Below, one piece after another: positions 1 to 12,601 of a stretch of DNA of 32,000 bases. The notes under the pieces were generated by a model, which saw nothing but the letters and a program-made list of their open reading frames with translations, searched no databases and was not told the origin of the DNA. Made by a program: the position numbers and the translations under genes. This stretch comes from Chloroflexota bacterium (GTDB lineage Bacteria; Chloroflexota; Anaerolineae; B4-G1; SLSP01): contig JAIOAS010000010.1 of assembly GCA_019873725.1 (NCBI GenBank), positions 7,214 through 39,213 on the forward strand. Reading direction: 5' to 3'. The number at the start of each line of letters is the position of its first letter. Positions within the stretch are counted from its first letter, which is position 1.

Positions 1-2422
1 AGATTTCGTGATCGCTATCACCCTCAGCCAGAGCAATGTTGATCTCGATTTTGACTCGATCCGGGGGTTGCATCTCGTCTAATTCCAGGCGCGTTTCAAG
101 GTTCAGACGTTCCAGTAATTTTTCGAGCTTGTCACCGTCCAGGTGACAATACCGTCTCAGTTGGGTCAAAGCATCCGGTATGAACAAACTAGCCTCGGGC
201 TGCGGTAACCATTCTGCATAAAGCGGTTCCCCAATCACACGTTCTCCTTCGGCTGCTTCGACCAATGCCAATAAGGGTAAGAGATGGGGGGATTGAATTT
301 GTATCAAACTGTTATAATCGGAGGCGCGCAACCGCGTACCCCGCAAGTAGCGCTCCCATATTTCACGTAGCCAGTCCTCATCACGGCCCTGTTCAACCGT
401 AATGCGTACGCGTTGTAAACGGTCTGTGATACTCGCGGCTTTCCTCTGTCTTAAGTCATATTGCTGCTTACTGTTCTCTACCAGTCTCCGCAGATATTCA
501 CGTCGTTGCGTAAATAACTGTTGTAGTTCGCGCGCGGATTTCTCAACTTCACGTTCTAAACGCTCCAACTCCGCTCGCTCGCGTTCCAGGCGTAACACAC
601 CATCCGGTGATAAATCCGGCAGCGCGCTCAACGCCTCTCGATAACGCGCTTCAAAAGTATCTCGCGCCTGCGCCCATGTCCCCTGCGCCTGCTCAATATC
701 TGTCTGCGCTTCCGTTAGTTTACCTTCAACCGTTTGCCACAAATCCTCCAAATCCCGCGCCAGGCGCTGCATACGTTCGCTTAACCATTTCAACTGTACT
801 GCATTGGGTAGAGTTTGGAGATCGTCATCGGGCAATAAAATTTCCAAAGGCGCTGCGCGACGGCGCGTCTCTTCGAGCATTTTGCGGGATTGTCTCAGTT
901 GCATCAGGGCTTCATCCCATGATTGCATTTCACGATCATACAGGCGTTTTGTTCCTGACAATTCCTGGATACCCAGTTCGTGGTAGCGGGATAACTGTTC
1001 TTCAATCCGTGGTTTGCTCTTCAGGCGATCTCGGGTCTGTTTTATGCGTTCATACTCAGCGATAATTGCCTCACGGTTACGCCGCAATTCAATCAATAGC
1101 GTATTATGATCACGCTTCAGTTGTTCTAAATCTTCTCCGACAAAACGATCCAATAACTCTAATTGTGAACTAACATTCTCAGAGGTATACAGAATTTCTT
1201 TTTGCCCGTAGAGTTGTGGTCGGAACACATCGGCCGGACGCAAGCCCGTAGACGACCAATGCCCATTGGATTCGTACCGTTCTACCAGAGTAGGGCTGCG
1301 TCCCTGGCGGACCAAACGATAACGCGCGCGGTCCTTGACGATCTCCAATTCGGCGCGTCCTGTTTCCGGCAAAAACACGTCGGCAAATCCCCGCAAGTCT
1401 GCGTCTTTACTACGTAAGGGTTCGATCTCCCATAAATAGCGCAATAATTCCACCAGGGCTGACTTCCCAGTCCCGCGCGCGCCAATGAGACAATTCAGAC
1501 GTGGGTTAAATTGCAAATCAATCTCGCGTAAAAAACCGCTCGTATTGAATCCGCTTTGCTTGATCAAACGTAAGGCTGACAGATAACATCGCGGCTCTGG
1601 TGGTGGGTCATCTCTCAAACGTAGGCGAGCTTGGGGGTCACGCAGAGCATATTTAAGCGCAGAGAAGGTAGGATGCTCACATTTAACATAGGTAAACCAT
1701 GCGCCTACCTGTTCGAGTCGGTGAGCATCGGAGGCATTCAAACATGCAATTGGATGTTCACGTCGAAAATCAGCGTCGTCATGTTGATTGGCAACAACTA
1801 ACCTTTGCCATTCGCTCAATTCTCCAAGGGTACCTTTATGAATTTGCACCCCCAGGAGTTCTGGCAGGCAGAAATCTCGTTTGCGCTTAAGCCCTTTATT
1901 CGATTTTGAATCCAACAAGCTATCTTCGGAACTAAAAACGTGCGCGGCAATCGCTATACCGCCGCGTTTTTCAATTGCCTGCACAACATCGGCAAAACTG
2001 CGCGGTGTTGGAATACAAAATCCTGCATCTGTAAAACGCTCCTTGAGGTCAAGATCATCGTCCAAAAAACGTTCGAGAATTTCAACCTTTGTATCTTCTG
2101 GGAAGATCGCCAGAACATGGATGGCACCAATGCCTCCTGAAGCGCTGACCTCTATTCCCGGCAACACCACGAAAGTTTCCCCATAATGTTCCCTGGCGGC
2201 TTGTCTTAAAGGATCAATCCAGCTCGTGTCGTTGTGATTGGTAATCGCAATAGCATCTAACCCGGCTATTTCATGCGCTTGTCGAACATAGCGACGGGCA
2301 AAGGCAAGTTTTTCCTCCGAAGTTGATGGTATCGCCTCGCTATCAGGCATGGTAAAATGTTGTCCGACACCCGGCGCGTGTAGATGCACATCAAACTTTT
2401 TGTAAGTCGCTCCCAAGCTCAT
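1..2422 (-). CDS. PHP-domain phosphoesterase fused to a Walker-A (ABC/SMC-like, coiled-coil) ATPase; partial, 3' end beyond window start
   Basis: Absent from the ORF track because it is open at the window edge. My translation of the minus strand from ATG at 2422 (RBS GAGGAG a few nt upstream) is stop-free to position 1 (~807 codons). The N-terminus MSLGATYKKFDVHLHAPGV..AITNHND..GIEVS..HVLAIF..AAHVF..NASDAH carries PHP metal-ligand motifs. It is followed by LIGARGTGKSALVELL (Walker A) and a long charged, coiled-coil-like region. Confidence 0.75.
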   Translation of the reverse strand, partial: MSLGATYKKFDVHLHAPGVGQHFTMPDSEAIPSTSEEKLAFARRYVRQAHEIAGLDAIAITNHNDTSWIDPLRQAAREHYGETFVVLPGIEVSASGGIGAIHVLAIFPEDTKVEILERFLDDDLDLKERFTDAGFCIPTPRSFADVVQAIEKRGGIAIAAHVFSSEDSLLDSKSNKGLKRKRDFCLPELLGVQIHKGTLGELSEWQRLVVANQHDDADFRREHPIACLNASDAHRLEQVGAWFTYVKCEHPTFSALKYALRDPQARLRLRDDPPPEPRCYLSALRLIKQSGFNTSGFLREIDLQFNPRLNCLIGARGTGKSALVELLRYLWEIEPLRSKDADLRGFADVFLPETGRAELEIVKDRARYRLVRQGRSPTLVERYESNGHWSSTGLRPADVFRPQLYGQKEILYTSENVSSQLELLDRFVGEDLEQLKRDHNTLLIELRRNREAIIAEYERIKQTRDRLKSKPRIEEQLSRYHELGIQELSGTKRLYDREMQSWDEALMQLRQSRKMLEETRRRAAPLEILLPDDDLQTLPNAVQLKWLSERMQRLARDLEDLWQTVEGKLTEAQTDIEQAQGTWAQARDTFEARYREALSALPDLSPDGVLRLERERAELERLEREVEKSARELQQLFTQRREYLRRLVENSKQQYDLRQRKAASITDRLQRVRITVEQGRDEDWLREIWERYLRGTRLRASDYNSLIQIQSPHLLPLLALVEAAEGERVIGEPLYAEWLPQPEASLFIPDALTQLRRYCHLDGDKLEKLLERLNLETRLELDEMQPPDRVKIEINIALAEGDSDHEI

Positions 2423-2518
2423 CAACTGCTCCTCTGGAAATAGTCTGATAGTCTTTAGTCACATAGTCTTGCACTTATTTTCATTATCGGGGCTATAGCA
2501 CACCTTCGGTTACACTCC
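2423..2518 (-). promoter_or_regulatory. 96-bp leader cassette, copy A (includes RBS, abuts the PHP-ATPase start codon)
   Basis: The reverse complement aligns over its full 96 nt with 26492-26587 upstream of hgcB (about 80/96 identical by hand alignment). Shared blocks are GGAGTGTAACCGAA, GCCCCGATAATGAAAAT, GACTATCAGACTATTT and CAGAGGAGCAG, ending 3 nt before the ATG. Confidence 0.6.
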
Positions 2519-2594
2519 TTTAATCCAAACGCTGAACATCCCCCTATTCTACAACAACTTCCTCAGAAGCTGCACCCCAGTCACCCTCTCTCCA

Positions 2595-2650
2595 ATTCCA
2601 GCCTCCAGCATCTAGCTTCCAGCATCTAGCTTCCAGTATCCAGCATCCAG
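2595..2650. repeat. Heptanucleotide tandem array (~8 units, CTGGATG/CTGGAAG/CTAGATG read on the minus strand)
   Basis: A 7-bp periodicity is directly visible. The array overlaps the last codons and stop of the methyltransferase gene (C-terminus ..YWMLDTGS). Confidence 0.8.
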
Positions 2651-12400: not shown

Positions 12401-12531
12401 GTGGGATTCTGGTACACCGGCGCAGCCGTACCATCCAGCACATCCTTGAGCCGGGCGGCGAAGATGTCTTCGGTCAGTTGCCCTTGCAGGACTTCGGGCC
12501 GCGGCGTGCAGGTATCGAAAACGAGTTGCAT
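9496..12531 (-). CDS. DUF499-type ATPase, defence-associated
   Basis: Start trimmed to ATG 12531 (RBS AGGAGGTGG upstream). MQLVFDTCTPRPEVLQGQLTEDIFAARL..LRLETAFGGGKTHNLIAL is the characteristic DUF499 N-terminus with its Walker A, and MMLDELARH looks like a Walker B. A Cys4-like CPVCGQPQSRCTC lies near the C-terminus. 1011 aa. Confidence 0.85.
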   Translation of the reverse strand: MQLVFDTCTPRPEVLQGQLTEDIFAARLKDVLDGTAAPVYQNPTTFFENTYPTAGLRLLLTEALGRLTGARPASSPILRLETAFGGGKTHNLIALYHAARGEALPAALIARVVEPTLLPAPGQVRIAGVVGSDLDPATGLYHAADNLRTFTLWGELAYQLGGPTGYALAQESDHHRSAPGTGLFAELVGERPTLMMLDELARHMRAAQSVPTATGKSDLAEQTVAFLMSLLEFAASRANVVVVLTLAGAEDAFAKETDQLRAHLAEAYKVSARQERVITPTGETEIAAIVRHRLFATIDAQAAAETAQAYTEAYRRWHAQNVALPTQALTAEYAQALATAYPFHPELLNALTLRVATIPNFQKTRGALRLLALVVRRVWEERPADAWCIAPYHVDLRHPEIAKDLTSRLERPAFQQVIEADIVSPKGAAPGHAYQIDGTWVMTGKPRYARRVATTVFLHSLVQGAISGIAPPELLLGALAPGDEPALVHKAAERLYDKGWFFEWDGLRYRFKPEPSINKIINDEMQLVGLTTAKAELDARIRRVWKSGVFKVVYFPQEADDVDDDADAPKLAVLHYDAASATATAPQPPELARKLATRTGALEGFRRFPNNVLFLVADGERVDELVETVRRYLGINRITGDAQRMQEFTEEQRKKIKKLGESAELDVRVGITKVYRHLYFPQAEALQRDGYLMHEMLPAQDQGEVQRDQSEVVLRVLRQQQKALTGNEPMLAAAYVKSRAWDANLVQMTTEDLRKAFARRLSLPLLFDVNQLKKTILNGIKMQVWIYYDARAEMGYDHESVPPAVQISDEAYLYLPAEAARLGLPIKGKEGVTPPREELCPVCGQPQSRCTCRDDITPPPPPPKPLRGAGVPQQAFQQLSDVFHDRQITHIQTLRIALQGQGQAGARALRTVGVVIPQLNAPVARVQLRSAAEFGDDESATFSVDLAWERYRQLKAATDDLAKLADKFTMTVTVVLHFPAGLPINSDAFRNIHEVLTTVGLDVIQLDAEEK

Positions 12532-12572
12532 ACCACCTCCTGTAGCCTGAAAATGGAACGTGATACGTTTAC

Positions 12573-12601
12573 AGTTTATCATCTTTTAAGGAAGGATGCA
12601 A
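12573..12601 (-). promoter_or_regulatory. Candidate sigma70 promoter TTGCAT-17-TAAACT for the DUF499 operon
   Basis: On the minus strand the -10 is at 12573-12578 and the -35 at 12596-12601, about 35-40 nt upstream of the RBS. The -35 lies in the terminal ATGCAAAT of the adjacent MITE-like element. Confidence 0.35.

Follow-up and report, generated by a model that had tools for sequence, protein, structure and literature searches.

Gene content and organization of the locus

The window, i.e. the whole 32 kb stretch of DNA that was analysed, carries in its first 12.6 kb a string of minus-strand genes, which encode a DUF499 ATPase, a small ASCH-DUF7680 protein, three proteins of other kinds occupying what we term slot 1, a DUF1156 methylase and, at the left end, a PHP-ATPase fusion. 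The genes lie where an earlier note on this DNA had placed them, their open reading frames being 9496-12582, 8501-9499, 6704-8494, 6113-6601, 5658-6221 and 2626-5781 (all on the minus strand); with their likely starts and neighboring elements they are as follows:

2..2422, minus strand: fusion of a PHP phosphoesterase and an ABC (SMC/Rad50-like) ATPase, TrlF family; N-terminal 807 residues out of 940, the gene running off the left end
2597..2650, minus strand: heptamer array, CTGGATG-like (coding strand), which covers the stop codon of the methylase gene and enters the 203-nt spacer that separates it from the PHP-ATPase gene
2626..5601, minus strand: DUF1156 N6-adenine-type DNA methyltransferase (HmaB-type), 991 aa from MSQSL; the ORF reaches 5781
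3466..3515, minus strand: heptamer array inside the methylase gene, encoding a linker (SAVSRQLSAVSDQQSA...) that joins the catalytic part to the C-terminal domains
5616..5658, minus strand: heptamer array, TCCAGYA x6 (coding strand), in the intergenic stretch that leads from the slot-1 cargo to the ribosome-binding site of the methylase gene
5658..6116, minus strand: retropepsin-like (Asp_protease_2) protein, about 152 aa (Pfam Asp_protease_2 8e-5, just under the cutoff); the ORF reaches 6221
6113..6601, minus strand: 162-aa protein with a weak DUF5678-like C-terminus (Pfam DUF5678 0.0098, sub-threshold), first of a coupled pair
6704..8494, minus strand: CAP/SCP-domain protein, 596 aa, with an N-terminal hydrophobic signal-like stretch (Pfam CAP 4.5e-15)
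8501..9499, minus strand: ASCH-linker-DUF7680 protein, the fourth core gene; ASCH at aa 1-130, linker at aa ~139-170, DUF7680 alpha+beta domain at aa ~178-332
8974..9134, minus strand: two adjacent heptamer arrays, GGTCAGC x12 and TCCAGCA x9 (coding strand), at 8974-9039 and 9051-9134, encoding the ASCH-DUF7680 linker
9496..12531, minus strand: DUF499 (HmaC-type, BrxC-like) STAND/AAA+ ATPase, 1011 aa; likely start M18 at 12531, the ORF reaching 12582
12658..12686, minus strand: weak match to a sigma-70-like promoter ahead of the DUF499 gene, TTACCA-17-TATAGT

In all likelihood the core of this system comprises the DUF499 ATPase, the small ASCH-linker-DUF7680 protein, the DUF1156 N6-methylase and a SNF2 helicase whose N-terminus carries an HKD/PLD nuclease domain; the first three of these are encoded inside the window. 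The DUF499 protein, which displays the motif ETAFGGGKTH and is identical to the database protein P0248, recovered the Pfam DUF499 model (8e-38) and the PADLOC HmaC model (1e-106), while the methylase, with its DPFSGGGS and TDPPYYDN motifs, recovered Pfam DUF1156 (1.7e-14) and PADLOC HmaB (1e-79). These profile assignments bear out the earlier proposal of a methylation-linked DUF499/DUF1156 defence locus. Relatives of the DUF499 protein at 56-91% identity are abundant in Anaerolineae MAGs, and the methylase is 79-81% identical to those of two of the loci considered below (L001 and L007). The NCBIfam equivalogs of the canonical DUF499/DUF1156/PLD-helicase system all scored below their cutoffs (DUF499_antiphage 238 bits against 1200; DUF1156_antiphage 224 against 1000; the helicase model 392 against 1100), which points to a divergent clade. 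The promoter that the earlier note had placed at ~12.6 kb corresponds to the match at 12686-12658; this stands as a consensus match only, and a weak one (9/12).

The GTG start of the ASCH-DUF7680 gene (9499-9497) overlaps the TGA stop of the DUF499 gene (9498-9496) as GTGA, precisely as had been noticed earlier. Sequence profile analysis of its product recovered both ASCH (Pfam 7e-6) and DUF7680 (2e-29), and its AlphaFold model (pLDDT 86) shows a linker with values below 50, consistent with a disordered, repeat-encoded segment. The predicted ASCH fold matches the ASCH domain of TRIP4, including its complexes with dsDNA (E 1e-9); for the DUF7680 domain a structure comparison against the PDB gave no match. 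The DUF7680 gene directly follows DUF499 in every retrieved Chloroflexota locus with a DUF499 gene (L001-L004, L007-L009, L012 and L013), and on a cyanobacterial plasmid it is a stand-alone gene that lies further downstream by one gene. The suggestion that an ASCH fusion fills the DUF3780 slot holds with respect to position, the domain in question being DUF7680 rather than DUF3780, a model matched by none of the 109 DUF7680 family members in profile searches.

The heptamer arrays reported in and around the core genes are real, and five of the seven period-7 arrays of the window fall in this 12.6 kb. Their enrichment over eight loci is about 2-fold and not significant (13 arrays in 106 kb versus 4 in 70 kb, p=0.13). 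The arrays at 8974..9134 encode the low-confidence segment of the ASCH-DUF7680 model, and relatives carry arrays at the same linker position with other units or copy numbers. Repeat arrays likewise occur in relatives at the position homologous to the methylase-internal array, where they vary in frame between near-identical loci. The CTGGATG-like unit at 2597..2650 is the reverse complement of the TCCAGCA unit; L005 also has an array at this methylase/PHP-ATPase junction, and so does L006, where the repeated unit is another one.

Conserved core and variable slots in related loci

Nine relative loci, seven of them distinct, were retrieved for comparison. Their core order is DUF499, (ASCH-)DUF7680, DUF1156 and HKD/SNF2 helicase, with variable genes in two slots, slot 1 between DUF7680 and the methylase and slot 2 between the methylase and the helicase:

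L001-L003 (DUF499 89% identical): DUF499, DUF7680, CAP, DUF1156, SNF2
L007-L009 (DUF499 91%): DUF499, DUF7680, three genes, DUF1156, two or three genes, SNF2
L004 (DUF499 65%): DUF499, DUF7680, four genes, DUF1156, toxin-antitoxin pair and SLFN/AlbA_2 gene, SNF2
L012/L013 (DUF499 71%): DUF499, DUF7680, DUF1156, TrlF, AlbA_2-ABC ATPase, DUF4276, SNF2
L010 (TrlF 88% identical): methylase, TrlF, AlbA_2-ABC ATPase, 220-aa gene, SNF2

The contents of the slots vary even among loci whose DUF499 proteins are 89-91% identical to that of the window, and the G+C of the cargo is below that of the core genes. The three unrelated genes that had been seen to split the ATPase from the methylase are the CAP gene and the DUF5678-like/retropepsin-like pair, and these are cargo nested in slot 1. 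The CAP gene, itself lower in G+C than the core, has an 83% identical counterpart in the same slot of L001 and is missing from slot 1 in L004, L007 and L012. The pair is shared with L004, where slot 1 holds a homologue of the DUF5678-like gene (46% identical) followed by one of the retropepsin-like gene (38%). The likely ATG of the latter in the window (6116) overlaps the stop of its partner as ATGA, as read from the sequence, and a promoter-like site lies ahead of the pair at 6676-6648.

The locus is thus mosaic, as proposed earlier, with extra genes nested between core genes, which raises the question of whether it might be a decaying or inactive remnant whose core operon was broken up by unrelated passengers such as a secreted CAP protein and a protease-like pair. 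About 5 kb of foreign genes part the core genes, slot 1 has a separate promoter-like site of its own, and a CAP protein with a signal peptide has no obvious defence role. However, the core ORFs are all intact and full length with their catalytic motifs kept, and the interrupted layout is maintained across relatives at 65 to 91% identity. Further, wherever near-identical loci differ in repeat length the reading frame is kept, which argues for purifying selection, and embedded genes occur in 62.7% of Hma systems (bioRxiv 10.1101/2024.01.29.577857). Decay is hence a very improbable explanation of the mosaic structure.

The probable helicase of the system

The 32 kb window encodes no helicase, and to this extent the earlier statement that none is in view stands. 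For the locus as a whole it does not, since every relative locus whose contig reaches far enough has an HKD/SNF2 helicase downstream of the methylase, and a full-length helicase of this family, 1241 aa long (P0255, with one member), is recorded on one NCBI contig of 39,214 nt. P0248 and P0121, which correspond to the DUF499 and PHP-ATPase proteins of the window, likewise come from an NCBI contig with a length of 39,214 nt. Given these same-size contigs and the synteny of the relatives, the helicase gene very probably lies just left of the window; its position would be about 2.8 kb beyond the edge, with the remainder of the PHP-ATPase gene and two further cargo genes in between. P0255 is 83% identical to the helicase of L001, and possesses in its N-terminus an HxK...GSxN motif and a weak PLDc_2 match. 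It recovered the NCBIfam "phospholipase D-like anti-phage protein" model with 7e-117, and its best PADLOC match is BrxHI/BrxHII (8e-76).

The lack of a helicase in the window, together with the placement of the PHP-ATPase gene directly after the methylase, where L001 has its helicase, could also be taken to indicate a helicase-less DUF499/DUF1156 variant in which the PHP-ATPase fusion replaces the helicase-nuclease as the effector. A nuclease role for it is plausible because PHP domains are metal-dependent phosphoesterases, and the earlier note had regarded it as the only nuclease-like candidate. Yet the close PHP-ATPase relatives with enough context (L010, L012 and L013) all keep the helicase after the cassette, and the distant TrlF loci with these systems also have one wherever the contig is long enough. 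Moreover, the missing genes need about 6.5 kb to the left of the window, where 7.2 kb of contig has yet to be accounted for, and this, along with the matching contig sizes, makes such a variant very improbable. The earlier note had held that a helicase and a DUF3780 gene just left of the window would make this the ordinary architecture; the record of P0255 on a contig of the same size supports the helicase half of that picture. Since a system of this kind has been described before and its helicase very probably lies just outside the window, the locus appears to be a rather ordinary representative instead of a novel type that lacks a helicase.

The TrlF cassette in slot 2

The PHP-ATPase gene was indeed missed by the ORF track used earlier, though only because its frame (open from 2422, 807 codons) leaves the window. 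The encoded 807 aa agree with the N-terminal 807 residues of P0121 at every position (100% identity) and recovered PHP_C and AAA_23/AAA_15 profiles, NCBIfam TrlF (2e-79) and PADLOC Ppl (8e-27); full-length P0121 scores 453 bits with TrlF (cutoff 350) and 195 bits, 2e-57, with Ppl (cutoff 1000). In relatives TrlF heads a three-gene cassette (TrlF, AlbA_2/ABC ATPase and a TOPRIM-like DUF4276 protein) between methylase and helicase. In L005, from the same strain, the next gene begins 14 nt downstream of the PHP-ATPase, and the first 50 aa that are present are identical at 44/50 positions to the AlbA_2-ABC ATPase of L010, which itself matches PADLOC HEC-01A (2e-45). A second ABC-ATPase gene directly follows TrlF in 17 of 80 TrlF relatives, as in L010 and L012/L013.

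The earlier observation that the PHP-ATPase gene is much more AT-rich than its neighbors is accurate: G+C is 0.47-0.51 over positions 1-2500 and 0.60-0.67 in the core genes. This low G+C and the repeat-filled spacer of 203 nt suggest that the TrlF cassette was acquired recently and separately, and it most likely represents an additional defence layer that is largely autonomous, and not the effector of the system. Alternatively, it might be a functionally integrated accessory or backup effector, triggered for example when the methylase-ATPase-helicase machinery is inhibited or overwhelmed. The expected adjacency of PHP-ATPase homologues to these genes does recur: all close relatives with context (identity 64-100%) have TrlF embedded in the system, and among 80 distant TrlF relatives, drawn from many phyla, 12 lie within 10 kb of a DUF1156 methylase, 9 of them immediately next to it irrespective of gene order. 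Two of these loci, L036 and L045, are canonical DUF3780-type systems with TrlF again between methylase and helicase. Such repeated juxtaposition could mean coupling, and auxiliary or backup nucleases have been proposed as a general feature of these systems (PMC12839542). But in about 85% of the TrlF relatives sampled, neither DUF499 nor DUF1156 is encoded nearby. The cassette is entirely missing from the closest sister loci (L001 and L007), and the related Ppl is active in E. coli as a single-gene system (PMC11482910). Together with the signs of separate acquisition, these points leave integration a real but minor possibility beside an autonomous layer.

The domain plan, with an N-terminal PHP phosphoesterase and an ABC-type ATPase bearing a long helical insert, is reminiscent of Ppl. 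The latter is said to have been introduced by Gao and colleagues in 2020 as a single-gene PHP and ATPase anti-phage protein. It has been described as mechanistically uncharacterised (PMC11482910). The score of the PHP-ATPase, far under the Ppl cutoff, indicates that it is not Ppl proper, whereas it passes the cutoff of the TrlF family; it further differs in being nested in another system instead of standing alone, and in being directly followed by a second ABC-ATPase gene.

Relationship to known systems

Taken together, the sequence affinities make it very likely that this is a DUF499-centred, restriction-modification-like anti-phage system of the kind published as Hma (helicase-methylase-ATPase) or "BREX-related" (BR), with a Type-2-like four-gene core. 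A comparison of gene order between L015-L018 on one side and L001 and L012 on the other shows the same succession as in the Type-2 BR system (RefSeq anti-phage-associated DUF499/DUF3780/DUF1156/phospholipase D-like; Rakesh & Krishnan, NAR 2026, PMC12839542), namely ATPase, small alpha+beta protein, N6-methylase and SNF2 helicase with N-terminal HKD/PLD domain. That type is reported to include fusions of the small protein to ASCH/PUA domains, and its canonical members L036 and L045 share the placement of TrlF. In contrast to it, the small protein here is DUF7680, the NCBIfam equivalogs fall far under cutoff, and the ATPase and methylase score better with Hma (Type-1) than with the PADLOC DUF499/DUF1156 models.

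With Hma (Payne et al. NAR 2021) the locus shares HmaC and HmaB as the best PADLOC models for its ATPase and methylase, and a helicase that also matches HmaA (4e-68). It differs in that Hma has three defining genes, whereas here a fourth, DUF7680, is conserved right after the ATPase, and in that the helicase has an N-terminal PLD-like domain and is matched better by the BrxHI and PLD_Helicase models. Nesting of genes between core genes is the rule in Hma as well (Payne et al., bioRxiv 10.1101/2024.01.29.577857), and the AlbA_2-ABC ATPase and DUF4276 pair of the relatives matches HEC-01A/B; the text of that work does not list a TrlF/Ppl-like gene among the embedded systems. The ATPase-methylase-helicase triad is also homologous to that of the PglZ/BrxA/BrxB/BrxL-type system (PMC12839542), but profile searches found no PglZ, BrxA, BrxB or BrxL in the window or in the relatives.

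The earlier note had wondered whether the family might be MADS (methylation-associated defence system). There are PADLOC matches to mad2 (2e-4, methylase) and mad3 (9e-8, ABC ATPase of the PHP fusion), and the AlbA_2-ABC ATPase of the relatives scores 74 bits with NCBIfam MAD3. These are, however, weak and reflect the general resemblance among methylases and among ABC ATPases (for MAD3 the cutoff is 420 bits), the Hma models are better by 60-100 orders of magnitude, and no other mad component was detected among these genes, so that the locus is almost certainly not MADS. It is very probably a Hma/BR system with embedded cargo; both the system type and the embedding are already published, and the earlier idea of an undescribed variant architecture accordingly gives way to the known nesting of genes in Hma and the known ASCH/PUA fusions in Type-2 BR systems (PMC12839542).

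Functional implications

By analogy with the published descriptions of these families, the methylase would mark the host DNA, while the DUF499 ATPase would serve as a scaffold and scan. The ASCH domain, as a reader together with DUF7680, would help to tell modified from unmodified DNA, and the helicase-nuclease would restrict unmarked invader DNA. What the locus adds to the biology of the family is modest, namely DUF7680 as a conserved fourth component and the adjoining of TrlF to the methylase in several phyla.

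Organization of the defence locus

The defence locus occupies positions 1-12,600 of the window as a single string of minus-strand genes, a layout confirmed by both ORF and profile searches. Its genes are as follows (ORF coordinates include the stop codon):

9496-12582, minus: DUF499 ATPase, 1028 aa (Pfam DUF499, 8e-38)
8501-9499, minus: ASCH fusion (ASCH + DUF7680), 332 aa (ASCH 7e-6, DUF7680 2e-29)
6704-8494, minus: CAP-domain protein, 596 aa (CAP 4.5e-15)
6113-6601, minus: DUF5678-like protein, 162 aa (weak profile match)
5658-6221, minus: Asp_protease_2-like protein, 187 aa (weak profile match)
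2626-5781, minus: DUF1156 methylase, 1051 aa (DUF1156 1.7e-14; motifs DPFSGGGS and TDPPYYDN)
2-2422, minus: PHP-ATPase exiting the left end of the window, 807 codons present (PHP_C + AAA_15/AAA_23)

Several points of an earlier note, made from the sequence alone, are borne out by this arrangement. The Pfam matches uphold the DUF499 and DUF1156 assignments, and the methylase motifs are present. The DUF499 and ASCH-fusion genes overlap as GTGA, within which the 332-aa gene starts (GTG) and the 1028-aa gene stops (TGA). The PHP-ATPase is more AT-rich than its neighbors (G+C 0.47-0.51 vs 0.60-0.67 in the core genes), and the three unrelated genes that split the ATPase from the methylase are those for the CAP, DUF5678-like and Asp_protease_2-like proteins. 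No helicase gene is present anywhere in the 32-kb window. Searches of the window also recovered no Rfam family and no tRNA, and hence an RNA 'leader' and an integration site are both unsupported.

The region to the right of the locus contains housekeeping genes, among them genes for PEP-utilising enzymes, methyltransferases, RsmF, MarR and a P-type ATPase. A 218-aa protein (12920-13576, minus) that ends in a SEC-C zinc motif is encoded directly upstream of the operon, and its PADLOC match to PDC-S12 (9e-8) is limited to this 20-residue motif; it probably does not belong to the system, since the relatives carry other genes at that position. Further right, and unrelated to the defence locus, two PEP-utilising/PPDK-like enzymes flank two genes of the leucine-carboxyl-methyltransferase family (18529-24919, plus). 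A 77-nt unit containing AAAATCCGTT sub-repeats is repeated 2.1 times at 98% identity (27491-27653), in the gap that separates the gene for the RsmF-like methyltransferase from a small ORF on the minus strand.

Conserved core and variable slots in relative loci

Relatives of the DUF499 protein number in the hundreds (56-91% identity), most of them in metagenome-assembled genomes of Anaerolineae/Chloroflexota. Representative gene orders, including those of more distant loci and of loci that carry relatives of the PHP-ATPase (TrlF family, see below), are listed here.

Table. Gene orders of relative loci (locus; identity to the window protein named; genes in order)
L001-L003; DUF499 89%; DUF499, DUF7680 (329 aa), CAP, DUF1156, SNF2 (1252 aa)
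L007-L009; DUF499 91%; DUF499, DUF7680, three genes, DUF1156, two or three genes, SNF2 (1245 aa)
L004; DUF499 65%; DUF499, DUF7680, four genes, DUF1156, PhdYeFM + PIN + SLFN/AlbA_2, SNF2
L014 (Leptolyngbya plasmid); DUF499 42%; EVE, DUF499, stand-alone DUF7680, about ten embedded genes, DUF1156, more genes, helicase
L012/L013; TrlF 64%; DUF499, DUF7680, DUF1156, TrlF, AlbA_2-ABC ATPase, DUF4276, SNF2
L010; TrlF 88%; methylase, TrlF, AlbA_2-ABC ATPase (572 aa), 220-aa gene, SNF2 (1268 aa)

These gene orders define a core of four genes, coding for the DUF499 ATPase, the DUF7680 protein, the DUF1156 methylase and the SNF2 helicase, together with two variable slots, the first between the DUF7680 and methylase genes and the second between the methylase and helicase genes. 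In the plasmid of Leptolyngbya sp. BL0902 (NZ_CP046156.1, 137959-155093) the stand-alone DUF7680 protein is annotated as 'hypothetical protein', the genes nested ahead of the methylase include PIN, macro domain + DUF4433 and MazF/RHH, and a Uma2 endonuclease is among the further genes ahead of the helicase. Locus L001, which lacks TrlF, carries a small stand-alone PHP-domain gene (9382-9987) ending 14 nt before DUF499; its kinship with the PHP domain of TrlF was rejected, the similarity being of the generic PHP kind only (E 0.038).

Affinities with Hma and BREX-related systems

DUF499-centred 'BREX-related' (BR) systems have been described by Rakesh & Krishnan (NAR 2026, PMC12839542). Their Type-1 is equivalent to the helicase-methylase-ATPase system Hma; Type-2 has an extra small DUF3780 protein, at times fused to ASCH/PUA or RAMA, and a helicase with an HKD nuclease at its N-terminus; and Type-3 has an extra PglZ and an inactive STAND protein (PMC12839542). 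The window ATPase matches the PADLOC HmaC model (PDLC00662) over residues 25-801 at 1e-106, and the methylase matches the HmaB models PDLC00660/00661 at 1e-79 and 1.5e-78. The reading of the region as a defence locus was right. The PADLOC models 'DUF499' (1e-47) and 'DUF1156_MTase' (9e-51) fit the two proteins far more poorly than HmaC and HmaB do. Both proteins score above the Pfam gathering thresholds for DUF499 and DUF1156 and well below the cutoffs of the NCBIfam 'anti-phage-associated' equivalogs (238 of 1200 bits for DUF499, 224 of 1000 bits for DUF1156), indicating that the locus belongs to a divergent clade.

Type-1 is taken here to lack a fourth gene and to have a helicase that begins with a TUDOR domain and ends with a PD-(D/E)XK nuclease. 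The present locus differs in having DUF7680 as a conserved fourth gene, and its probable helicase P0255 (see below) has a PLD-like rather than a TUDOR N-terminus. Type-3, taken as a locus with a stand-alone PglZ and an inactive STAND protein, does not apply either, PglZ being matched by no gene of the window or its relatives. With Type-2 the locus shares the same DUF499/DUF1156 pair, whereas the slot for the small protein holds DUF7680 here and DUF3780 there. The suggestion that the family might be MADS was rejected: the PADLOC matches to mad2 (2e-4) and mad3 (9e-8) are weak next to those to HmaC and HmaB, and the NCBIfam MAD3 model is matched by the relatives' ABC ATPase only, at 66-74 bits against a cutoff of 420. 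The locus, with its embedded cargo, is a Type-2-like representative of the DUF499-centred Hma/BR systems already published.

The helicase and its associated nuclease

The earlier note had regarded the lack of a helicase as a novelty, a claim that the protein records speak against. The window DUF499 protein, read from M18, is exactly the database protein P0248, and the PHP-ATPase fragment is 100% identical to the 940-aa protein P0121; the record of each names an NCBI contig 39,214 nt long, of which 7.2 kb lie outside the 32,000-nt window. A search with the L001 helicase recovered P0255, an SNF2 helicase of 1241 aa (83% identical, single member) recorded on a single NCBI contig that is likewise of 39,214 nt, and in the relatives L010 and L012/L013 the helicase follows the cassette. 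L005, a Logan contig of the same strain, has a methylase C-terminus identical to that of the window and the whole of the PHP-ATPase, 14 nt after which begins a gene whose first 50 residues are identical at 44 of 50 positions to the AlbA_2-ABC ATPase encoded behind TrlF in L010. The remainder of the cassette and the helicase would need about 0.4 + 2.4 + 3.7 kb, i.e. about 6.5 kb, which fits within 7.2 kb. We infer from these records that the helicase gene would lie left of the window on the source contig, past the PHP-ATPase cassette. The architecture was to count as ordinary if a helicase and a DUF3780 gene sat just left of the window; the helicase half of this very probably holds. The seemingly missing helicase is very probably an effect of the window edge.

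On the protein record, rather than on window DNA, P0255 matches the PADLOC model HmaA at 4e-68, bettered by BrxHI (8e-76) and PLD_Helicase (5e-72). The N-terminal HKD/PLD nuclease of Type-2 helicases is likewise seen on P0255 and the relatives' helicases and not on window DNA. P0255 contains the HxK...GSxN motif (YFHPKVGIF...GSINES), matches PLDc_2 under the cutoff (2.8e-4) and the N-terminal models of PbeA over residues 6-441 (4e-69), and has as its best NCBIfam family the 'phospholipase D-like anti-phage protein' (phospholipD_antiphage; 7e-117, 392 of 1100 bits). Together, the motif and these matches indicate that the putative effector nuclease is of the Type-2 kind, and the role of effector, formerly proposed for the PHP-ATPase, would fall to this domain.

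The ASCH-DUF7680 protein

An AlphaFold model of the ASCH fusion, built on a 109-sequence alignment (pLDDT 86), predicts an ASCH barrel (residues 1-130), a disordered linker (139-170) and an alpha+beta domain (178-332). The ASCH part resembles the ASCH domain of TRIP4, dsDNA complexes included (E 1e-9). The DUF7680 domain modelled by itself (pLDDT 91) has four strands and about six helices, and a Foldseek search with it recovered no match in the PDB (best E-value 0.9). The family is small, with 305 representatives at E up to 1e-3 among 1.84 billion proteins, and the majority of these are proteins of about 145 aa without a fused domain; an ASCH domain is present in 15 of the 109 sampled. The literature searched yielded nothing relevant on DUF7680 or TrlF.

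The proposal that an ASCH fusion fills the DUF3780 slot stands as regards the slot, which is filled by DUF7680. Pfam DUF3780 is matched by none of the 109 family members. Alignments with four to six DUF3780 proteins are colinear, with matching motifs (EEAYYW/EERWW and RALR/WRKAL), and the predicted topology resembles the published description of DUF3780. The hhalign P-values are 0.013-0.073, with a score of 16.8 against a column-shuffle null reaching 16.5, and hmmsearch is similarly marginal. DUF7680 is accordingly a positional counterpart of DUF3780, probably a functional one too, and at most a putative homologue.

Heptamer repeats in the linkers

Five period-7 arrays lie inside the defence locus, in agreement with the heptamer arrays noted earlier. 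Read on the coding strand, the arrays of the ASCH-DUF7680 linker repeat NGTCAGC and TCCAGCA, the array ahead of the methylase repeats TCCAGYA, and the one spanning the methylase stop repeats CTGGATG. The linker-encoding repeats (8974-9134 and 3466-3515), mostly heptamers read in all three frames, code for disordered linkers of two core proteins. Relatives have arrays at matching places, with the same or other units. In L007 and L009, which have an identical DUF499 protein, the ASCH-DUF7680 proteins differ solely in the repeat-encoded linker, by a 21-aa in-frame indel and a few substitutions at the array end (L007:13526-13731 vs L009:4798-4960), and the sole difference between the methylases is a 16-aa in-frame indel in the linker (L007:18565-18626 vs L009:9822-9883). 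These in-frame changes, with arrays in matching places, point to linker and spacer repeats that change fast in this lineage while preserving the frame. Phase variation by heptamer frameshift was rejected, the near-identical loci differing in frame, and the split DUF7680 gene of L008 is due to a run of N (a scaffold gap) rather than to a frameshift. Arrays are not significantly enriched in these loci. Two arrays of one heptamer family bracket the methylase in inverted orientation (2597-2650 and 5616-5658; TCCAGCA on the plus strand 3', its complement 5'), and no consistent bracketing of this kind was seen in the relatives.

Cargo of the first slot

The first slot of the window is a patchwork, its CAP gene coding for a protein 83% identical to that of L001 and the 162-aa/187-aa pair showing 46% and 38% identity to genes in the same slot of L004. 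The CAP/SCP protein (596 aa; 6704-8494, minus; L001:14020-15810) has a signal-like N-terminus, starts 6 nt after the DUF7680 gene and occupies the same slot in the sister locus L001; such a passenger is unexpected in a DNA-defence system of the cytoplasm. The pair (5658-6601, minus), coupled by an ATGA overlap at 6113-6116, combines a protein with a DUF5678-like C-terminus and one with a retropepsin-like aspartyl-protease fold, and recurs in this slot at L004:14785-15953, where the ATPase is only 65% identical. It might be a toxin-antitoxin-like or defence cassette.

The TrlF cassette of the second slot

The PHP-ATPase is a member of the TrlF family (NCBIfam NF045780): P0121, to which the 807 aa of the window protein are identical, reaches 453 bits over model positions 2-944 (cutoff 350), the window fragment by itself giving 269 bits. 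Its score against Ppl (NF042955) is 195 bits, the cutoff being 1000; it is thus related to Ppl, a single-gene defence of so far uncharacterised mechanism (PMC11482910), without being a member. The genes that accompany TrlF recall HEC-01 (Hma-embedded candidate 01), which consists of an ABC ATPase (A) and a TOPRIM-like protein (B). In L010 and L012 the A-like gene matches at 2e-45 and 3e-43, and the B-like gene matches weakly (1e-6 to 3e-4) and has a sub-threshold hit to Pfam DUF4276; in the window strain the A-like gene is known from its first 50 residues alone.

A census of 80 TrlF relatives (26-33% identity) in GTDB representative genomes of many phyla found a DUF1156 methylase within 10 kb in 12, about one in seven, and DUF499 too in 10 of these 12. 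TrlF immediately adjoins the methylase in 9 of the 12, in varying gene orders and in different phyla (e.g. L036:2625-16513, L045:2511-16664, L019:3-16512 and L092:973-17248), and in two loci, L036 and L045, it lies between the methylase and helicase of canonical DUF3780-bearing systems. An ABC-ATPase gene directly follows TrlF in 17 of the 80. PHP-ATPase relatives do recur beside these genes in this minority of loci; about 85% of the relatives are without such a neighbor. The recurrent contact with the methylase is what might be expected under the main rival reading, namely that the cassette is a coupled 'backup effector' of the core system. This we consider rather unlikely: the cassette is missing from the closest sister loci L001 and L007, its G+C is about 12-15 points under that of the core, and most relatives lie elsewhere. 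Probably, then, it is a mobile and autonomous defence cassette that lodges preferentially in DUF499-centred systems.

Conclusions

The mosaic had been taken for an undescribed architecture, a view that does not survive comparison with Hma systems, 62.7% of which enclose other genes, in many cases defence systems, between those of the core (Payne et al., bioRxiv 10.1101/2024.01.29.577857). For cataloguing purposes it represents the usual embedded-cargo habit of Hma/BR systems, and is neither a new architecture nor MADS. A bolder proposal, that the Chloroflexota/cyanobacterial clade is a distinct, unnamed DUF499-centred subtype with DUF7680 as a fourth component (often ASCH-fused via a hypervariable repeat-encoded linker, and no homologue of DUF3780), in which the methylase-adjacent TrlF cassette, found in several phyla, is a functionally coupled second nuclease layer instead of a random lodger, appears to us unlikely.

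Three leads remain: the conserved fourth gene, DUF7680; the tendency of TrlF to accompany the methylase; and the slot-1 genes. By 'guilt by embedding' the CAP protein and the DUF5678-like/retropepsin-like pair become candidate defence genes, and the same principle nominates as defence genes the TrlF-family PHP/ABC-ATPases, relatives of Ppl of uncharacterised mechanism. DUF7680, for its part, is a lead as the conserved core partner in a large Anaerolineae/cyanobacterial clade of DUF499-centred systems.
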